A DNA stretch of 64,000 nt from Patescibacteria group bacterium (GTDB taxonomy: Bacteria; Patescibacteriota; Patescibacteriia; Magasanikbacterales; UBA922). The stretch is from the NCBI GenBank assembly GCA_018823045.1, contig JAHJIX010000002.1:64846-128845 (forward strand), read 5' to 3'. The translations under genes were made by a program, and so were the position numbers. The notes below the pieces were generated by a model. It was given only the letters and a program-made list of their open reading frames with translations. It had not been told where the DNA came from and did not search any database. Below are positions 11,834 through 17,940 of this stretch, in pieces (position 1 is the stretch's first letter; every line of letters begins with the position of its first letter).

Positions 11834-12895
11834 ATGCTTCGTAAAACAAGTTTTCAAAAAATGCGCTCCATTTTCTTTTTTTCCTTACTTATCCTGTTGG
11901 GGGTACTTTCTCTTGTTATCATGCAACCATTTGCCTACCCAATTTTTTGGGCAGCAGTTATTGCGATTATGTTTCACCCTGTGTACAAATGGATTGATAA
12001 ACACATTAAACTCCCAGGCATTAGCTCTTCTATTACCGTTATTATTGTTGTGCTTGTCATATTCCTTCCACTAGTCCTCTTATCTGCATTACTTATTCGT
12101 CAATCGACAGACATTTACCAACAAGTCACAGCAGGTGACCTTACTCTTACGATAGAGCATGTTATGACACAATTATCAGAAAGTAAACTTGCGCCACTCT
12201 TTACTTTTTTTCAAAATGATTGGGCAAACTATGCAACAGAAGGAGCAAAACAAATTTCTTTGTTTATCTTTAATAATCTCAAAGTCATTACCCAAAATTC
12301 TTTCATGTTTCTCTTTCTCTCAGCAGCCATGCTCTATACCTTGTATTTTTTCTTAAAAGATGGAGAAAAAGTCTTACAAAAAATCATGTATTACTCCCCT
12401 CTTGGAAATGAATATGAACACATGCTCTACGAAAGATTTACATCAACATCCAGAGCTACACTAAAAAGCACCCTCATTCTAGGTGGTATACAAGGAACAC
12501 TTGGAGGACTACTTTTTTTAGTCACCGGAGTTGAAGGAGCCTTCATCTGGGGGGTTATCATGACCGTCCTTTCTGTTATCCCGGCACTTGGCTCTGTCAT
12601 TGTATGGCTCCCAGCAGGTATCATTATGCTTGCACTCGGCAATACTGCAGAAGGTCTGATTATTTTACTCTTTGGCTCAATTGTTATTAGCAATATCGAC
12701 AATGTCCTTCGTCCAATCATGGTCGGAAAAGATACACAACTACATCCACTCCTTGTACTCTTTTCAACCTTAGGAGGAATTTTCTTCTTTGGTGTTTCTG
12801 GATTTATTATCGGACCAATTGTTGTCTCTCTTTTCCTTGCAATCCTATCAATTTACGATCACCACTACGCAAAAGATCTTAAAAAGAATGTGTAA
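11834..12895 (+). CDS. putative AI-2E family (PerM/UPF0118-like) membrane transporter
   Basis: 353 aa, about 8 TM helices, glycine-rich middle region. The architecture is typical of AI-2E permeases. Confidence 0.45.
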   Translation: MLRKTSFQKMRSIFFFSLLILLGVLSLVIMQPFAYPIFWAAVIAIMFHPVYKWIDKHIKLPGISSSITVIIVVLVIFLPLVLLSALLIRQSTDIYQQVTAGDLTLTIEHVMTQLSESKLAPLFTFFQNDWANYATEGAKQISLFIFNNLKVITQNSFMFLFLSAAMLYTLYFFLKDGEKVLQKIMYYSPLGNEYEHMLYERFTSTSRATLKSTLILGGIQGTLGGLLFLVTGVEGAFIWGVIMTVLSVIPALGSVIVWLPAGIIMLALGNTAEGLIILLFGSIVISNIDNVLRPIMVGKDTQLHPLLVLFSTLGGIFFFGVSGFIIGPIVVSLFLAILSIYDHHYAKDLKKNV

Positions 12896-12901
12896 AATAA
12901 A

Positions 12902-12941
12902 AAAGTATCGGATAGCTCATGTTTTACTACTATCCGATATT
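12902..12941. repeat. hairpin repeat copy 1 (AAAGTATCGGATAG-loop-CTATCCGATATT)
   Basis: 10-11 bp perfect stem TATCGGATAG/CTATCCGATA. A near-identical unit recurs at 13942..13981. Also acts as a terminator-like structure after the AI-2E gene. Confidence 0.6.
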
Positions 12942-12977
12942 TTAAAGTAACGATAAACAAAAAGAGATGATGTATTA

Positions 12978-13961
12978 TCATCTCTTTTTACTTTTTTGAT
13001 CAATATATTTTTCCACAGCCTCTTTTGTACTTAACCAATTTCTTTCCTTTTTTATGGCATGTAATATTCCTTTTCTGGCAAGTAAACTTAAATATTCTTG
13101 TGAATAAGGAACCATCTTACTTAATTCACTTAATGTTATATATTCATTTTTCATATAAGCCGTCTTTGGATCAACATGTTCTACAGCCTCTAAATATAAA
13201 CCAAGAGAACGATCTATTGCCTGTGCCACAAATAATACAAACGGCGCTAAATCTCCCTTATTTGCTTTGTTTAATACATCATAATATTTTTTTCTATCTT
13301 GTTTTAAAATTATTGCTGGTGGATACCCCATCTGCATTAAAATTAAATTCATAAAAAGTCGAGCTGTACGTCCATTTCCATCTACAAAAGGATGAATAGC
13401 CACTAACTTATAATGTGCCAAAGCAGAAAACTCTATAACACTCATGTTATTTTTTGATGTATTTAACCACTCAAAATACTCACTCATTAGTTTGGGTACC
13501 GAAATTGGATTTGGAAGTACAATATTTGCACCAAGTATTCTTACTCTGTGAATTCTATACCTCCCGGCAAACTCATCTTCTATATCTGAAAGAATAATAC
13601 CATGCAATGCCAATAATTGTTTTTCTGAAAACATTGCCTTTTTTAATACAAATTTTTCAAGTAATTCAATTGCTTTTTTATGATTTGTCGTCTCAATATG
13701 CTCTCTCAAAGTTTTTCCTTTCACGGTAATTCCTTCACGTAAAACAAGAGCTGTTTCTTTTAATGTTAACGTATTTCCCTCTATAGCATTGGAATTATAT
13801 GTCCATTCTATAATAAATTGCTCACGTAATTTACGTAAAATATCTTTTTGTAAGGGTCGAAAACTATCTAAATTCTTTTTTTTTTCTTCTATCCTGTTTA
13901 ATATTTTTTGATCTAATAACATATAATAAATGATTTTTTTTAAAGTATCGGATAGGGCCAT
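12978..13961 (-). CDS. Fic family protein (class II Fic with N-terminal inhibitory SxxxEG motif and C-terminal wHTH-like tail)
   Basis: Canonical Fic motif HPFVDGNGRTAR. Upstream inhibitory-helix motif SNAIEGN. Confidence 0.85.
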   Translation of the reverse strand: MALSDTLKKIIYYMLLDQKILNRIEEKKKNLDSFRPLQKDILRKLREQFIIEWTYNSNAIEGNTLTLKETALVLREGITVKGKTLREHIETTNHKKAIELLEKFVLKKAMFSEKQLLALHGIILSDIEDEFAGRYRIHRVRILGANIVLPNPISVPKLMSEYFEWLNTSKNNMSVIEFSALAHYKLVAIHPFVDGNGRTARLFMNLILMQMGYPPAIILKQDRKKYYDVLNKANKGDLAPFVLFVAQAIDRSLGLYLEAVEHVDPKTAYMKNEYITLSELSKMVPYSQEYLSLLARKGILHAIKKERNWLSTKEAVEKYIDQKSKKR

Positions 13962-13981
13962 TATAGCACCTATCCGATATT
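13942..13981. repeat. hairpin repeat copy 2, overlapping the Fic start codon
   Basis: GTATCGGATAGG-loop-CCTATCCGATAT. The Fic ATG (13959..13961) lies in the loop. Confidence 0.6.
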
Positions 13982-14181
13982 AAGTAAAGTATTTATAACA
14001 ATATAGAGTACATACACAAATTATTACAACAAAAAAGGCGACTTTAGGTCGTCTTTTTCATAACATTGCTAAACTCACGGCTTGCCACGAGATGGCGCTA
14101 CTGTTTTTATACTTAACTACGTAAAATCCACCATTCAGTCAAATTACATAGTATGTCATATATGGCTTGCGCCATTTTACG

Positions 14182-14268
14182 TGGTGCCGCGGGCGGGATT
14201 TGAACCCGCGCGGTATTTCTACCAAGGGATTTTAAGTCCCTCGTGTCTACCAACTCCACCACCGCGGC
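14182..14268 (-). tRNA. tRNA-Leu (anticodon UAA), type II with long variable arm, CCA encoded
   Basis: Manual fold: acceptor GCCGCGG/CCGCGGC, anticodon loop CUUAAAA, variable-arm stem GGTA/TACC, T-loop TTCAAAT. Confidence 0.8.
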
Positions 14269-14423
14269 GTATATCTACTAAATTACGGAGATAATATATC
14301 ATATACACAAAATAAAATCAAGTGCATATATATACAATACAACACCAATACGCACATGAAAAAAAACAAATATGGAATAGTAAAGTGCTGTTCTCACGTA
14401 TATGAGAGCAGCACTTTTTTGTG

Positions 14424-14675
14424 TCAATATACATGAATAAGCCACCCGTAAATACGTAATTTCAATACTGCTTCTAATATGTTTAATCGTTTCACAGGAT
14501 GACCAACCCAAAAATTTTTTTTATACTCTGGGATATCAATACAACTATAAAAAGACAAATACCCATGAAAGACATATGGGTCACACACAGTACAACCATA
14601 ATATGTTAAATATTCAATAAGCTGATCAATACAAGGCTGTTCCATGTATGGATATCGGTAAATGAAAATATCCAT
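14424..14675 (-). CDS. small hypothetical protein (83 aa), paralog A of a tandem pair
   Basis: Strong RBS AAGGAGGTG 7 nt upstream of the ATG. About 45% identity to the ORF at 14862..15113 (shared MDIF.Y, YL.YY.C, GYL.F, DIP, IL.L.LRI.GW.I.VY). Confidence 0.6.
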   Translation of the reverse strand: MDIFIYRYPYMEQPCIDQLIEYLTYYGCTVCDPYVFHGYLSFYSCIDIPEYKKNFWVGHPVKRLNILEAVLKLRIYGWLIHVY

Positions 14676-14761
14676 GTACACCTCCTTTCTATTACCGTAG
14701 CATATTTTACTAGATTTGACAAAATATCTCTTTTTTCTCTTTAGTATTTTCAATCACTTAT

Positions 14762-14820
14762 TTTTACCAATCCAACGTCCCCCCAACCTGATACTCCGTT
14801 ACTCTCGTCTCAAAAAAATC
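14762..14820. repeat. direct repeat: duplicated copy of the nrdB 3' end (last 13 codons plus stop plus downstream)
   Basis: About 60 bp near-identical to 17937..17996. Reverse-translates to RVTEYQVGGTLDW*. Confidence 0.75.
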
Positions 14821-14861
14821 ATACAGTGCTGGATTCTCATGTGGAATCCAGCACTTTTTGC

Positions 14862-15113
14862 TTAATATACATAAATACGCCACCCTTGAATTCGTAATTG
14901 TAAAATAATCTCTAATATTGTTACTCGTATTGCTCCACTTTTCCCCAGATACATTGAATGATGTACGGGAATATCCACTGGAACATGAAATGTTAAATAG
15001 CCCTCAAAAATATCAGGATTTAACACATCGCAATTATAATATTTCAAATATTGAATCAAGACCCTCCTATACTGTTTTGATGTGTATCCATGCACATAGA
15101 CAAATATATCCAT
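14862..15113 (-). CDS. small hypothetical protein (83 aa), paralog B
   Basis: RBS AAGGAGGTG. Paralogous to 14424..14675. Confidence 0.6.
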   Translation of the reverse strand: MDIFVYVHGYTSKQYRRVLIQYLKYYNCDVLNPDIFEGYLTFHVPVDIPVHHSMYLGKSGAIRVTILEIILQLRIQGWRIYVY

Positions 15114-16190: not shown

Positions 16191-16219
16191 TTGACAAAAT
16201 GGTCAAAACGTGCTATAAT
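16191..16219 (+). promoter_or_regulatory. perfect sigma70 consensus promoter (TTGACA-17 nt-TATAAT)
   Basis: ttgacaaaatggtcaaaacgtgctataat read directly from the sequence. Confidence 0.7.
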
Positions 16220-16365
16220 GAATCGTTTTTTAAAATAAAGAGATATGCACATTGCTGCATCTGTACTGAAAAAGACAATACAGATGCAGTAGCGTGGATT
16301 CCATGCTCGACAACTGGGGCAACTTTGCCCCCACCAATTCCCCATTATGGGGAAGGAGAAAAGGT

Positions 16366-16803
16366 ATGCGTTTCATCGCTATCCTCATCCTCACCGCCAT
16401 CATCCCCGCCATCGCCGCCATCGCCGCGCCCGCCACCCCCGTCCTCGCCGCGCCCGCCACCCCCGTGGCGCCCGCGCCCGCCACCCCCGTGGTGGTCACG
16501 ACCGAGAAGGAGGTCAACTTCATCACCCCGATGAACCTGTCCCGCCGCTCGGTTATGGAAGAGAGGCAGCACTGTCACAAGGTGCTGACCTCACTCACCG
16601 CCCTCGAACGGGCTGAAAAGCACGGAGCCAGGGCCTACACCTTGGCCCGTGCCAAGACCCGAAAGGCCCTCTGCCCCGAGAGGAAGAGGGAGTGCATTGA
16701 GGAGCACCAATTGATCCTCACCCGCAAGTGGTATCCCCACTGGGACCACACGGCACCAATCAAGGATTGGTGCCAGAAGGTGCTGAGGATCAACCGGGGA
16801 TAA
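16366..16803 (+). CDS. small secreted protein with PATPV repeats and a C-terminal 4-Cys domain, in a strongly GC-rich segment
   Basis: RBS AAGGAG 8 nt upstream. Signal peptide MRFIAILILTAIIPAIAAIAA, then (A)PATPV x3. About 60-65% GC versus about 35% background. Alternative overlapping frames on both strands appear to be GC artefacts. Confidence 0.55.
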   Translation: MRFIAILILTAIIPAIAAIAAPATPVLAAPATPVAPAPATPVVVTTEKEVNFITPMNLSRRSVMEERQHCHKVLTSLTALERAEKHGARAYTLARAKTRKALCPERKRECIEEHQLILTRKWYPHWDHTAPIKDWCQKVLRINRG

Positions 16804-16921
16804 GTACTGCTCATTTGCGGTACCTTTCCCCACACACCCGGCGAGCGAATGCCTGAAAAACTTTCGCTCGCCCACTTTACTATCATTTTAAACTTCATTA
16901 AAGTGACAGAAGAGTCGCAAC

Positions 16922-16964: not shown

Positions 16965-17897
16965 TTATTCACTATCAATCAGCGCGTACCCTTCAATCAC
17001 AGCATCAAGAAAAAATTCTTCAAGTGCTAAATAATCTCCTTTTATTTGCGCCTTTTTTAAATATTCATAATATTTCCTTTTCTTTTCTTGACGAATAATC
17101 GCTGGAGGAAAATCGGCTTCAAGCAACATACCAACCATCAATAAACGACCAATTCTGCCATTTCCATCTGAAAAAGGATGGATCTTTTCAAAATCAGCGT
17201 GAAAACGAGGAATAAATGACAAAATATCTTTTTTCTTTTCCTTAAACAAACCCTTTATTAATTCTGGAACTTTCAAATAATTTGCTGTTACCACCCCAGA
17301 ACCAACAATCCTTACACCATGATTTCGATAACACCCTGCATTATCGAGTATACTATTCATAAGAATTTGATGTAATGACAACATTGTTTTTTCATTTATT
17401 TTTTCCTTTTTACTCACATGTTCAAATACCCTCAAAAAAGCAGCCTGATGATTTTTGGCTTCCATGTGCTCACGCATACTTTTGTTTTTCACCGTTACTC
17501 CATCAAACAAAATTTGAGCAGTATCCTTTACTGTCAGTGTTGACCCTTCAATACTATTACTATTGTATGTCAAAGATAAAACAAATTCATCAAATAAATC
17601 TTTTCTCTTCTTGAGTAATGGGACTATTCCCTTATGCTGTTTTTGCTTTTCCAAAACAATATTTCTTTTCTCTTCTAAAAGATTTTTTCCACTTTTCTTG
17701 ACTCCTGTATATTTTGTATACAATTCATTAATAATTTTTTTATTTGATTCTCTTGGCTCTTTTTTGCGATAAAGCCAATTATTAAGAGTAACAAAAGATA
17801 CTCCAAGCTCACGCGCAAGTGATTCTTGAGTTTTATTAAAATTTTTGAGAAGAATTGTTAATTTTTTATCATAACTCATATATTCAAAGCATATCAA
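16965..17897 (-). CDS. HTH-Fic protein (N-terminal XRE-type HTH plus Fic domain)
   Basis: Fic motif HPFSDGNGRIGR. Inhibitory motif SNSIEGS. N-terminal LARELGVSFVTLNNWL helix-turn-helix. Confidence 0.85.
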   Translation of the reverse strand: MICFEYMSYDKKLTILLKNFNKTQESLARELGVSFVTLNNWLYRKKEPRESNKKIINELYTKYTGVKKSGKNLLEEKRNIVLEKQKQHKGIVPLLKKRKDLFDEFVLSLTYNSNSIEGSTLTVKDTAQILFDGVTVKNKSMREHMEAKNHQAAFLRVFEHVSKKEKINEKTMLSLHQILMNSILDNAGCYRNHGVRIVGSGVVTANYLKVPELIKGLFKEKKKDILSFIPRFHADFEKIHPFSDGNGRIGRLLMVGMLLEADFPPAIIRQEKKRKYYEYLKKAQIKGDYLALEEFFLDAVIEGYALIDSE

Positions 17898-17940
17898 AGT
17901 TTATAAACTTTGTCAATAGAGCAGCAGTTTATAAACTTTT
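17893..17940. promoter_or_regulatory. two palindromic operator-like sites upstream of HTH-Fic
   Basis: CAAAGTTTATAAACTTTG (18-bp perfect palindrome) and AGTTTATAAACT 16 nt apart, lying between the fic start and the nrdB stop. Confidence 0.45.

Follow-up and report, generated by a model that had tools for sequence, protein, structure and literature searches.

A repeated palindrome at the promoter of an inserted fic gene is a probable site of Fic autorepression

Introduction

Fusions between Fic enzymes and helix-turn-helix (HTH) domains were noted, and autoregulation was suggested for them, as early as 2009 (PMC2686095). The closest described system is CccR of Yersinia pseudotuberculosis, a class II Fic protein with a C-terminal HTH that represses its own promoter as a dimer; its operator consists of two 10-nucleotide (nt) inverted repeats that lie 26 nt apart, near the -35 and -10 elements (PMC9755527). 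For CbFic2 of Coxiella burnetii, the published abstract describes DNA binding that drives dimerization and switches the enzyme between AMPylation and de-AMPylation, and names neither a specific operator nor autoregulation (PMC10628234). The present study concerns a fic gene, and a palindrome that occurs twice around it, in a 64,000-nt stretch of a Patescibacteria genome (contig JAHJIX010000002.1; the whole stretch is called the window below). The copy at the fic promoter is termed op1 and the copy beyond the other end of the gene op2. To our knowledge, CccR in Yersinia is the one case in which self-repression by a Fic-HTH protein has been shown.

The window Fic resembles CccR in having an N-terminal inhibitory helix, a C-terminal HTH and promoter inverted repeats separated by a long spacer, and, as far as sequence can tell, every testable feature of a CccR-type autorepressing Fic-HTH protein is found here. 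The two systems differ in their operators (AGATAATCAT-N26-ATGATAATCT for CccR, against TATCGGATAG-N13/14-CTATCCGATA here, with the -10 box inside the spacer), in the type of HTH (excisionase/MerR, Pfam HTH_17, in the window protein) and in the presence here of op2, a second and distant candidate operator copy of a kind not described for CccR. CccR is a type VI secretion system effector of one species, whereas the family of the window Fic extends across the candidate phyla radiation (CPR), DPANN and many other phyla. PDB entry 7xux, which is probably CccR, superposes on the window Fic with a whole-chain Foldseek root-mean-square deviation (rmsd) of about 14 Å. CbFic2 (PDB 8cil) and SoFic (3eqx) likewise join a Fic enzyme to a C-terminal HTH, but their structural similarity to the window protein is low (Foldseek E-values of 1e-7 to 1e-8, whole-chain rmsd above 11 Å); by analogy with CbFic2, operator binding here could also tune enzyme activity.

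Two further comparisons place the enzyme. Human FICD/HYPE carries the same inhibitory and catalytic motifs and is the nearest solved relative of the catalytic part of the window Fic, but it does not bind DNA and has a membrane anchor and tetratricopeptide (TPR) repeats where the HTH would be. Toxin-antitoxin (TA) operons of the phd-doc type also combine an enzyme of Fic/Doc fold with an inhibitory element and self-repression through a palindromic operator, and type II TA modules are, like the fic cassette described below, small, mobile and often found beside tRNA genes. Unlike in phd-doc, the inhibitor (the alpha-inh helix), the enzyme and the presumed repressor domain are here parts of one polypeptide, with no separate antitoxin gene.

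Results

Judged by its position and by analogy with CccR, the repeated unit is probably a DNA site for Fic autorepression at the fic promoter rather than an RNA element; we consider this likely as a joint reading with the inserted cassette and the origin of op2 described below. On the fic strand the elements follow one another as TTTACT-taa-TATCGGATAG-gTGcTATAATggcc-CTATCCGATA-(23 nt)-ATG, and the 14-nt spacer of op1 (GTGCTATAATGGCC, 13969..13956) contains the -10 box of a predicted sigma-70 promoter that is the best such match between positions 12500 and 14500 (10/12, 17-nt spacer, extended -10 TGcTATAAT). An inverted-repeat site overlapping the gene's own predicted -35 and -10 elements is present at fic: the distal arm occupies the interval between -35 and -10, and the proximal arm covers the expected transcription start, which would lie near A13953, about 7 nt past the -10 box. 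Because the -10 box sits in the "loop", a transcript from this predicted start would carry only the proximal arm. The three nearest Fic relatives (74, 65 and 64% identical), picked by protein similarity alone and lying in unrelated gene neighborhoods, have the op1 arms at the same upstream place, and all three share the order TTGACa (TTGACA/TTGACT), 3 nt, arm, gTGnTATAAT, arm, 13-14 nt, ATG.

A first-pass annotation of this DNA had placed the Fic ATG in the loop of the upstream unit and proposed an mRNA hairpin that hides the start codon. That ATG (13961-13959) is made up of the last two bases of the TATAAT box and the next G, and the open reading frame (ORF) beginning there is a mechanical artefact. 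In the family alignment 36 homologues align from Met14 (13922), and public gene callers report a 314-residue product, so the gene has the extent given in Table 1; an exact look-up of the 327-residue mechanical ORF found no match because the real product is the shorter one. The true start codon lies about 23-24 nt beyond the palindrome and the fic 5′ untranslated region (UTR) is predicted to be unstructured (0 kcal/mol), and the proposed mRNA hairpin is not supported.

The window was scanned for the palindrome with spacers of 8 to 22 nt, and op1 and op2 are its only two exact matches (plus strand), both of the form TATCGGATAG-N14-CTATCCGATA, where the expected count is 0 and none of 100 shuffled sequences gave a match. 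This search for further copies covered the 64 kb of the source genome that make up the window. With up to one mismatch the arm GTATCGGATAG occurs in four places, all within the two copies, and at three mismatches per arm the scan picks up just three more sites, all of them weak (5-6 mismatches apiece). The 40-nt units around the copies (12902-12941 and 13942-13981) are 75% identical overall, but this identity is unevenly spread: by hand count, the arms with their flanking AAAG and TT agree at 26/26 positions and the spacers at 4/14, the chance level, which argues for constraint on the arms. The copies lie 1040 bp apart with the Fic ORF between them, as the first-pass annotation had described for a direct repeat about 1.04 kb apart. 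That they bracket the gene also holds, though not exactly, a terminator (12959-12989) intervening between the fic stop codon and the downstream copy. Neither unit, with loops of 12-14 nt, passes the intrinsic-terminator scan that the nearby hairpin at 12959-12989 does pass, and with two copies in 64 kb the unit is not dispersed in the window. Two apparent regularities were set aside. The self-symmetry of the arm (TATC-N-GATA, a near-palindrome) was treated as a coincidence, a variant operator with arm TATGGTATA lacking it, and the 1040-bp spacing, equal to 99.0 helical turns, was given no weight, torsional phasing being negligible at such a distance.

Outside the window, we scanned one genome per species (596 Gb) for the exact 20 arm bases with a spacer of 10-18 nt. 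At least 119 public genome stretches contain the palindrome, against a chance expectation of about 5 (596 Gb x 9 spacings / 4^20, a hand calculation that ignores base composition). In at least 63 of these a Fic homologue, 45-57% identical, starts directly beside the palindrome, and there the spacer is always 13 or 14 nt. Among the matches listed, the bacterial hosts belong to Patescibacteria, Bacteroidota, Bdellovibrionota, Acidobacteriota, Chloroflexota, Leptospiraceae and Margulisbacteria, and the archaeal hosts to Micrarchaeota, Aenigmatarchaeota, Altiarchaeota, Thermoplasmatota, Undinarchaeota and Bathyarchaeia. The spacers of the two domains differ in kind. Among the matches listed, all 27 archaeal loci have a 13-nt spacer, 21 of them with TTTWWA, always at spacer position 6; the bacterial loci have a 14-nt spacer in 31/37, TTTWWA in 1/37 and a -10 hexamer matching at 5/6 positions or better in 17/37. 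The center of the archaeal TATA element falls about 26-27 nt before the ATG (12 nt separate site and ATG), and 26-27 nt from TATA to start is the canonical distance for a leaderless archaeal transcript. From the archaeal TATA and bacterial -10 spacers it follows that the arms persist while the core promoter element between them is replaced to match the host.

Several observations on these loci stand apart from that comparison. Many archaeal cassettes (L005, L016, L023, L033, L050, L051, L058, L088, L089 and L109; L numbers are our labels for the loci compared) have two tandem sites upstream of fic, 64-66 bp apart from start to start, a spacing of about 6 helical turns that suggests cooperative binding on one face of the DNA. 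The 56 stretches without Fic nearby are a mixture of unrelated hairpins and orphan sites. Matches in Gastranaerophilales are terminators before rex, with no Fic. In Duganella (L003, L032, L042, L045, L065, L070 and L077) the same 10-nt arms enclose a GC-rich spacer of 16-18 nt, again with no Fic nearby, between divergent genes of which one encodes a 382-residue protein conserved in several species; these presumably serve as operators for an unrelated regulator whose half-site has converged on the same sequence. Five matches in viral contigs all have GC-rich spacers and no Fic, and gave no evidence of carriage by phages. Searching the literature for the arm sequence yielded unrelated primers alone, with no report of it as a binding site.

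The site also tracks a protein domain. In a control sample of metagenome loci drawn by protein similarity, where a site was scored at up to two mismatches per arm within 150 nt upstream, it precedes 5/9 genes for Fic proteins with a C-terminal HTH and 0/68 for those without the domain (hypergeometric p ~6e-6, likewise by hand and ignoring base composition); one further site in this set precedes a gene truncated by the end of its contig. At the remaining 4/9 HTH loci this position is taken by variant palindromes or half-sites. Three of these four, L129, L130 and L132, share the operator TATGGTATAg-N13-cTAnnCCATA, whose arm TATGGTATA is the counterpart of the usual TATCGGATA, and these three alone among 70 loci have a predicted recognition helix of the form S(T/E)KY(L/M)NLL (STKYLNLL) in place of SQEYLSLL. 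The helix and the operator thus covary, and this sub-family would offer a ready-made specificity pair for experiments. From these patterns, and by analogy with the described Fic-HTH proteins, the binder of the palindrome is most probably the Fic protein itself, acting through its C-terminal HTH.

The window ORF matches the Pfam Fic domain (E 1e-22) and has more than 7,900 homologues at E <= 1e-20. Its inhibitory motif, SNAIEGN, fits the class II pattern [S/T]xxxE[G/N], with S44, E48 and G49 invariant in 37 sequences, and its catalytic motif, HPFVDGNGR, which fits HPFx[D/E]GN[G/K]R, is invariant in the family alignment. A winged HTH follows at residues ~260-314 and is the most conserved non-catalytic part of that alignment; HTH_17 is detected at E<0.01 in 25/37 family members. 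The AlphaFold2 (AF2) model has a predicted local distance difference test (pLDDT) score of 91, with 87-91 in the HTH domain, and predicts the beta-alpha-alpha-beta-beta-alpha topology of a winged HTH. The catalytic core has human FICD as its top PDB match (phmmer E 2e-50, residues 3-246; 38-40% identity and template modeling (TM) score 0.74 in the Foldseek alignment) and is nearer to FICD/HYPE than to any solved bacterial Fic, a closeness that may bear on the origin of the metazoan enzyme.

We propose that the fic promoter would have op1 as its operator, with one 10-bp arm on either side of the extended -10 box, and that a Fic dimer would bind it with one excisionase/MerR-type HTH per arm, the arm centers lying 24 bp apart. 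Such binding would block RNA polymerase and keep a potentially toxic AMP-transferase low and self-limited. The same cassette would circulate among bacterial and archaeal phyla, its arms kept and its spacer re-fitted to the host core promoter, and op2 would be a second site for the same protein at the far cassette edge, with a decayed promoter, acting, if at all, as an auxiliary site through cooperative looping, as a roadblock or as a sink. On this proposal the logic of CccR would recur in a different and much larger family, with another HTH type and another operator, that is the nearest prokaryotic relative of FICD found here. The pair of protein and operator would be portable to an unusual degree: CPR bacteria, Bacteroidota, Bdellovibrionota, Acidobacteriota, Chloroflexota and at least six archaeal lineages would retain it base for base, with the few bases between the arms alone exchanged to suit sigma-70 or the archaeal TATA-binding protein and transcription factor B (TBP/TFB). 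It would then be a compact natural repressor working by core-promoter occlusion in both domains, and a testable system, in which a single small protein acts on a 34-bp site at two promoter types, for the survival of a regulatory module through inter-domain transfer and for a possible tuning of Fic activity by DNA binding, as seen in CbFic2.

A number of points weigh against this proposal. The identity of the binder is argued from co-occurrence, covariation and analogy; the protein-sampled loci with an HTH number only nine, and the covariation of helix and operator may be the effect of a single clade. The 63 Fic loci of the genome scan were selected by an exact arm match and are uninformative on arm conservation. 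HTH_17 scores 19 bits in the window protein, below the Pfam cut-off of 27, and the best Foldseek matches of the C-terminal domain (excisionases, MerR-family DNA-binding domains, BldC and TraN; TM 0.6-0.69) all have E-values above 0.1 for this 61-residue domain. The phmmer similarity to CccR (7xux) is confined to the Fic core (E 1e-12, residues 31-237), and the two HTH domains may have no common origin. A second site downstream is absent from 64/67 related loci and present in 3/67, and so is not general to the mechanism, and the perfect arms of op2 could reflect a recent origin instead of selection. Exact palindromes with AT-rich, family-like spacers of 13-14 nt also occur as orphans with no Fic within 8 kb (including L008:6220-6252, L010:1848-1880, L044:5669-5701, L087:1336-1368 and L116:4787-4820), for which another binder or other targets are possible. 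Orphan sites in archaea have a TATA-like element at spacer position 6, a 93-residue ORF begins 22 nt downstream of the one in L008, and that of L116 lies on the same Patescibacteria contig as the fic loci L024 and L081; orphans of this kind may represent relics, additional targets or vacated sites.

The downstream copy, op2, lies 10 nt past the perM stop codon, beyond the terminator, and has no gene downstream of it. On the fic strand it reads GTTACT, arm, TAGTAAAAC, arm, the full promoter-operator form of the family, and its spacer resembles the working spacers GTGTAAAATCAACG and AGTAAAATTACCT except for a T-to-C change at the key last position of the -10 box; the essential final T is missing from the -10-like hexamer TAAAAC, and no promoter was called at op2. 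Tandem units occur elsewhere, at L099 and L039, and the likeliest origin of op2 is that it served as the promoter-operator of a neighboring or earlier cassette. Either selection for binding still maintains its arms or they are too recent to show decay, and it could function as an auxiliary operator, as a roadblock against read-through from perM, or not at all. A primary promoter operator paired with a second, identical site hundreds of bp away, able to increase the repressor concentration locally, is known from lac O2/O3, gal OE/OI and deo, a possible parallel to op2 at 1040 bp; looping needs a bridging protein, and here the second site is absent in most fic relatives.

The tandem units themselves come from two Patescibacteria. 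At L099:3168-3829 and in L039 (stored coordinates 1929-2619) a hicA/hicB-like TA pair, assigned by reading the sequences, lies beside a fic cassette and tRNA-Trp, and ahead of it stands a second unit that combines a promoter and the same operator with a degenerate fragment of tRNA-Trp. This arrangement suggests either tandem cassettes with one shared operator or a small Fic-HTH regulon.

Together, gene, promoter and site make up an inserted cassette of about 1.1-1.3 kb, with perM on one side and tRNA-Leu on the other. The left-hand synteny is preserved in a related Magasanikbacteria genome, which has a 70% identical perM and no fic: in L207 and L208 the order is threonyl-tRNA synthetase (ThrRS), a 383-residue gene, T2SSE, a 327-residue gene, perM, one bidirectional terminator and tRNA-Leu(taa). 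This empty syntenic site marks the fic segment as an insertion, and comparison of related genomes for its presence or absence thereby bears out in part the first-pass suggestion of a cassette. Should the hairpin at 14033-14060 be the ancestral terminator between perM and tRNA-Leu, the minimal insert would span ~12896-14030 (~1.13 kb). The inserted DNA is slightly poorer in GC (0.27-0.33) than its flanks (0.35-0.42); perM is aligned over 99-100% of its length by homologues of 352-356 residues, and the terminator at the 3′ end of fic, which overlaps the stop codon, is shared by the two convergent genes, perM and fic. The two palindromes lie at or near the two edges of the insert, so the idea that they mark the boundaries of a mobile unit stands in that respect; the attC-like or miniature inverted-repeat transposable element (MITE)-like character proposed for them does not. 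Neither unit contains a GTTRRRY core, the stems are perfect over 10-11 bp, no terminal inverted repeats with target duplications surround the unit, no further arms beyond the two copies were found in the 64-kb window that would indicate dispersal of the MITE or repetitive extragenic palindromic (REP) type, and a downstream copy is the exception among related loci.

Direct repeats of at least 13 nt flank fic at 13/61 loci and at 0/122 shifted control intervals (p 2.5e-7), among them L083:9-1137, L129, L125, L055, L130, L062, L033, L019, L048, L084, L005 and L109. They delimit spans of 1057-1238 bp (cassettes of ~1.06-1.24 kb), are exact over 13-45 nt and extend to about 60 nt with mismatches, and their sequence is specific to the host, deriving from tRNA fragments in L083 and L019 and from the 3′ end of a protein gene in L005. 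In the archaeon L083 the order is a 45-nt tRNA-His repeat, 10 nt, site, fic, site, 12 nt and the 45-nt repeat again; archaeal loci have the left repeat directly against the distal palindrome and the right one 5-70 nt past the stop codon. An Rfam scan of 14 repeat-flanked loci detected tRNAs, in L019, L083 and L126, and under the repeats no RNA gene of any other kind. Neither the window insert nor the repeat-flanked cassettes contain a recombinase gene. Such repeats point to a class of tiny mobile cassettes with one gene each. They invite comparison with attC cassettes, MITEs and tRNA islands, which share a small single-gene unit beside a tRNA and border repeats (as with the tRNA 3′ fragments of L083 and L019), but from which the present locus differs in having no integrase in the insert, no attC core and a repeat that is the putative operator of the promoter. 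A tRNA-targeted integrative island would fit the position of the insert beside tRNA-Leu, but the insert has no repeated tRNA-Leu fragment and no integrase, and no duplicated tRNA-Leu fragment or direct or inverted repeat joining the insert edges scored above shuffled sequences. Adjacency to tRNA genes was considered as a rule for the family and discarded: 11/87 loci listed lie within 600 nt of one, three being the window contig and 9 independent, by our estimate about the chance level for small genomes.

Table 1. Coordinates of the fic cassette and its surroundings in the window.
Feature	Position	Strand	Description
op1 (promoter-embedded putative operator)	13946..13979	-	distal arm 13979..13970, proximal arm 13955..13946
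Predicted sigma-70 fic promoter	13960..13988	-	-35 TTTACT 13988..13983; TG 13968..13967; -10 TATAAT 13965..13960
fic gene	12978..13922	-	314 residues; start Met14; class II Fic AMP-transferase
Bidirectional intrinsic terminator	12959..12989	both	13-14 bp stem, T-runs on either side; terminator scan and inverted repeat
op2 (second copy of the arms)	12906..12939	-	exact palindrome; spacer TAGTAAAACATGAG on the fic strand
Inserted fic cassette	12896..14181	both	absent from the syntenic site of a related genome
perM, AI-2E family transporter	11834..12895	+	Pfam AI-2E_transport, E 1.5e-50; intact host gene on the other side
tRNA-Leu(UAA)	14182..14268	-	ARAGORN; landmark on one side; adjoins perM in the empty-site relative

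Discussion

That the upstream copy is an RNA hairpin occluding fic translation initiation, and the downstream copy a terminator or stabilizer, is highly improbable. The units would fold at -20.9 and -15.9 kcal/mol if fully transcribed (z-scores -6.2 and -5.9), op2 is followed by TTTT on the plus strand, and the final base of the proximal arm is also the first base of the ATG in several bacterial relatives. Against this stand the -10 box in the loop, with the distal arm outside the predicted transcript, the unstructured 5′ UTR and the position of the real start codon; moreover, the arm sequence is conserved to the base across domains and not via compensatory change, natural variants such as TATGGTATAG with TAAACCATA break the pairing, and the loops fail a terminator scan that a canonical terminator 20 nt away passes. 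Scarcely credible is a generic dispersed repeat of the REP, MITE or attC kind that came to lie beside fic by chance. It would account for the 56 of at least 119 matches that have no Fic nearby, some of them clearly other things, as with the rex terminators and Duganella, but not for the adjacency of at least 63 of them to one protein family, nor for a density of two copies per 64 kb with no further arm at up to one mismatch, and the unit has neither GTTRRRY, nor an imperfect stem with extrahelical bases, nor terminal inverted repeats with target duplications.

The remaining alternatives concern mobility and the downstream copy. It is very doubtful that the palindromes are functional cassette ends, serving as recombination or targeting sites with the excisionase-fold HTH of Fic possibly as an architectural factor, even though fic was inserted next to a tRNA 3′ end with the units at the edges, the L083 sites sit just inside the tRNA-His repeats, direct repeats flank fic at far more loci than controls, the HTH fold matches excisionases and some sites occur as orphans, away from any fic. 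Recombinases of the tyrosine and serine types require the crossover region to be identical, whereas the two spacers differ at 10/14 positions; the cassette has no recombinase gene, 64/67 related loci have the site on the promoter side only, the flanking repeats are host sequence outside the palindromes and not the palindromes themselves, the window shows no repeated tRNA-Leu fragment, and promoter control fully explains the position of the site relative to the -35/-10 elements or TATA box. A broader version, in which a minimal Fic-winged-HTH cassette of ~1.1 kb crosses between Bacteria and Archaea with an invariant operator, its spacer rebuilt as a TATA box or a -10 box, inserting at the 3′ ends of tRNA or protein genes and leaving host-derived repeats of 13-60 nt without a recombinase of its own, while HTH and palindromes join in its mobility as ends or landing pads, strikes us as quite unlikely; were it true, op1 and op2, like site1 and site2 of L083, would be element ends and the orphan sites empty or vacated targets. 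We lean against, but take seriously, the possibility that op2 is a mere relic, left by a deleted tandem cassette or an earlier fic copy, so that only op1 matters. Its full promoter layout, its spacer one T-to-C change in the last -10 base away from near-working form, the tandem units of L099 and L039 and the scarcity of downstream sites (3/67) all fit such an origin. An identity of 26/26 in arms and flanks against 4/14 in the spacer is hard to reconcile with neutral decay, perM is intact to within 10 nt of op2 with no trace of a deleted gene, and the archaeon L083 independently keeps a near-perfect second site right after its fic stop codon with no gene to drive.

Neighboring features of the window

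A second Fic gene with its promoter lies within 16965-17937 on the minus strand (probable start ATG 17877); its product has an N-terminal XRE-type HTH_3 domain and no C-terminal HTH. Its promoter is embedded in two perfect 12-bp palindromes, AGTTTATAAACT, at 17898-17909 and 17926-17937, one of them upstream of the -35 element TTGACA (17915-17910) and the other in the -35/-10 spacer, an arrangement that resembles a second, parallel scheme of self-repression built on another HTH and another operator. Between the two fic genes, a block at 16200-16900 has 52-66% GC in a genome of ~35% GC. Both of its strands are occupied by long ORFs that overlap and have a high content of Pro, Arg, Gly and Ala; the block might be foreign DNA or a low-complexity gene for a surface protein. 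Nearer to tRNA-Leu are two paralogous small ORFs on the minus strand, 14424-14753 and 14862-15113, without a Pfam match, which share a 74-nt repeat at 73% identity and are each followed by a strong hairpin (14382-14417 and 14817-14863). In the relative L207 a sulfatase gene follows tRNA-Leu instead. The interval from 12.9 to 17.9 kb, with fic, tRNA-Leu, the small ORFs, the GC-rich block and the second fic gene, looks like a variable island.

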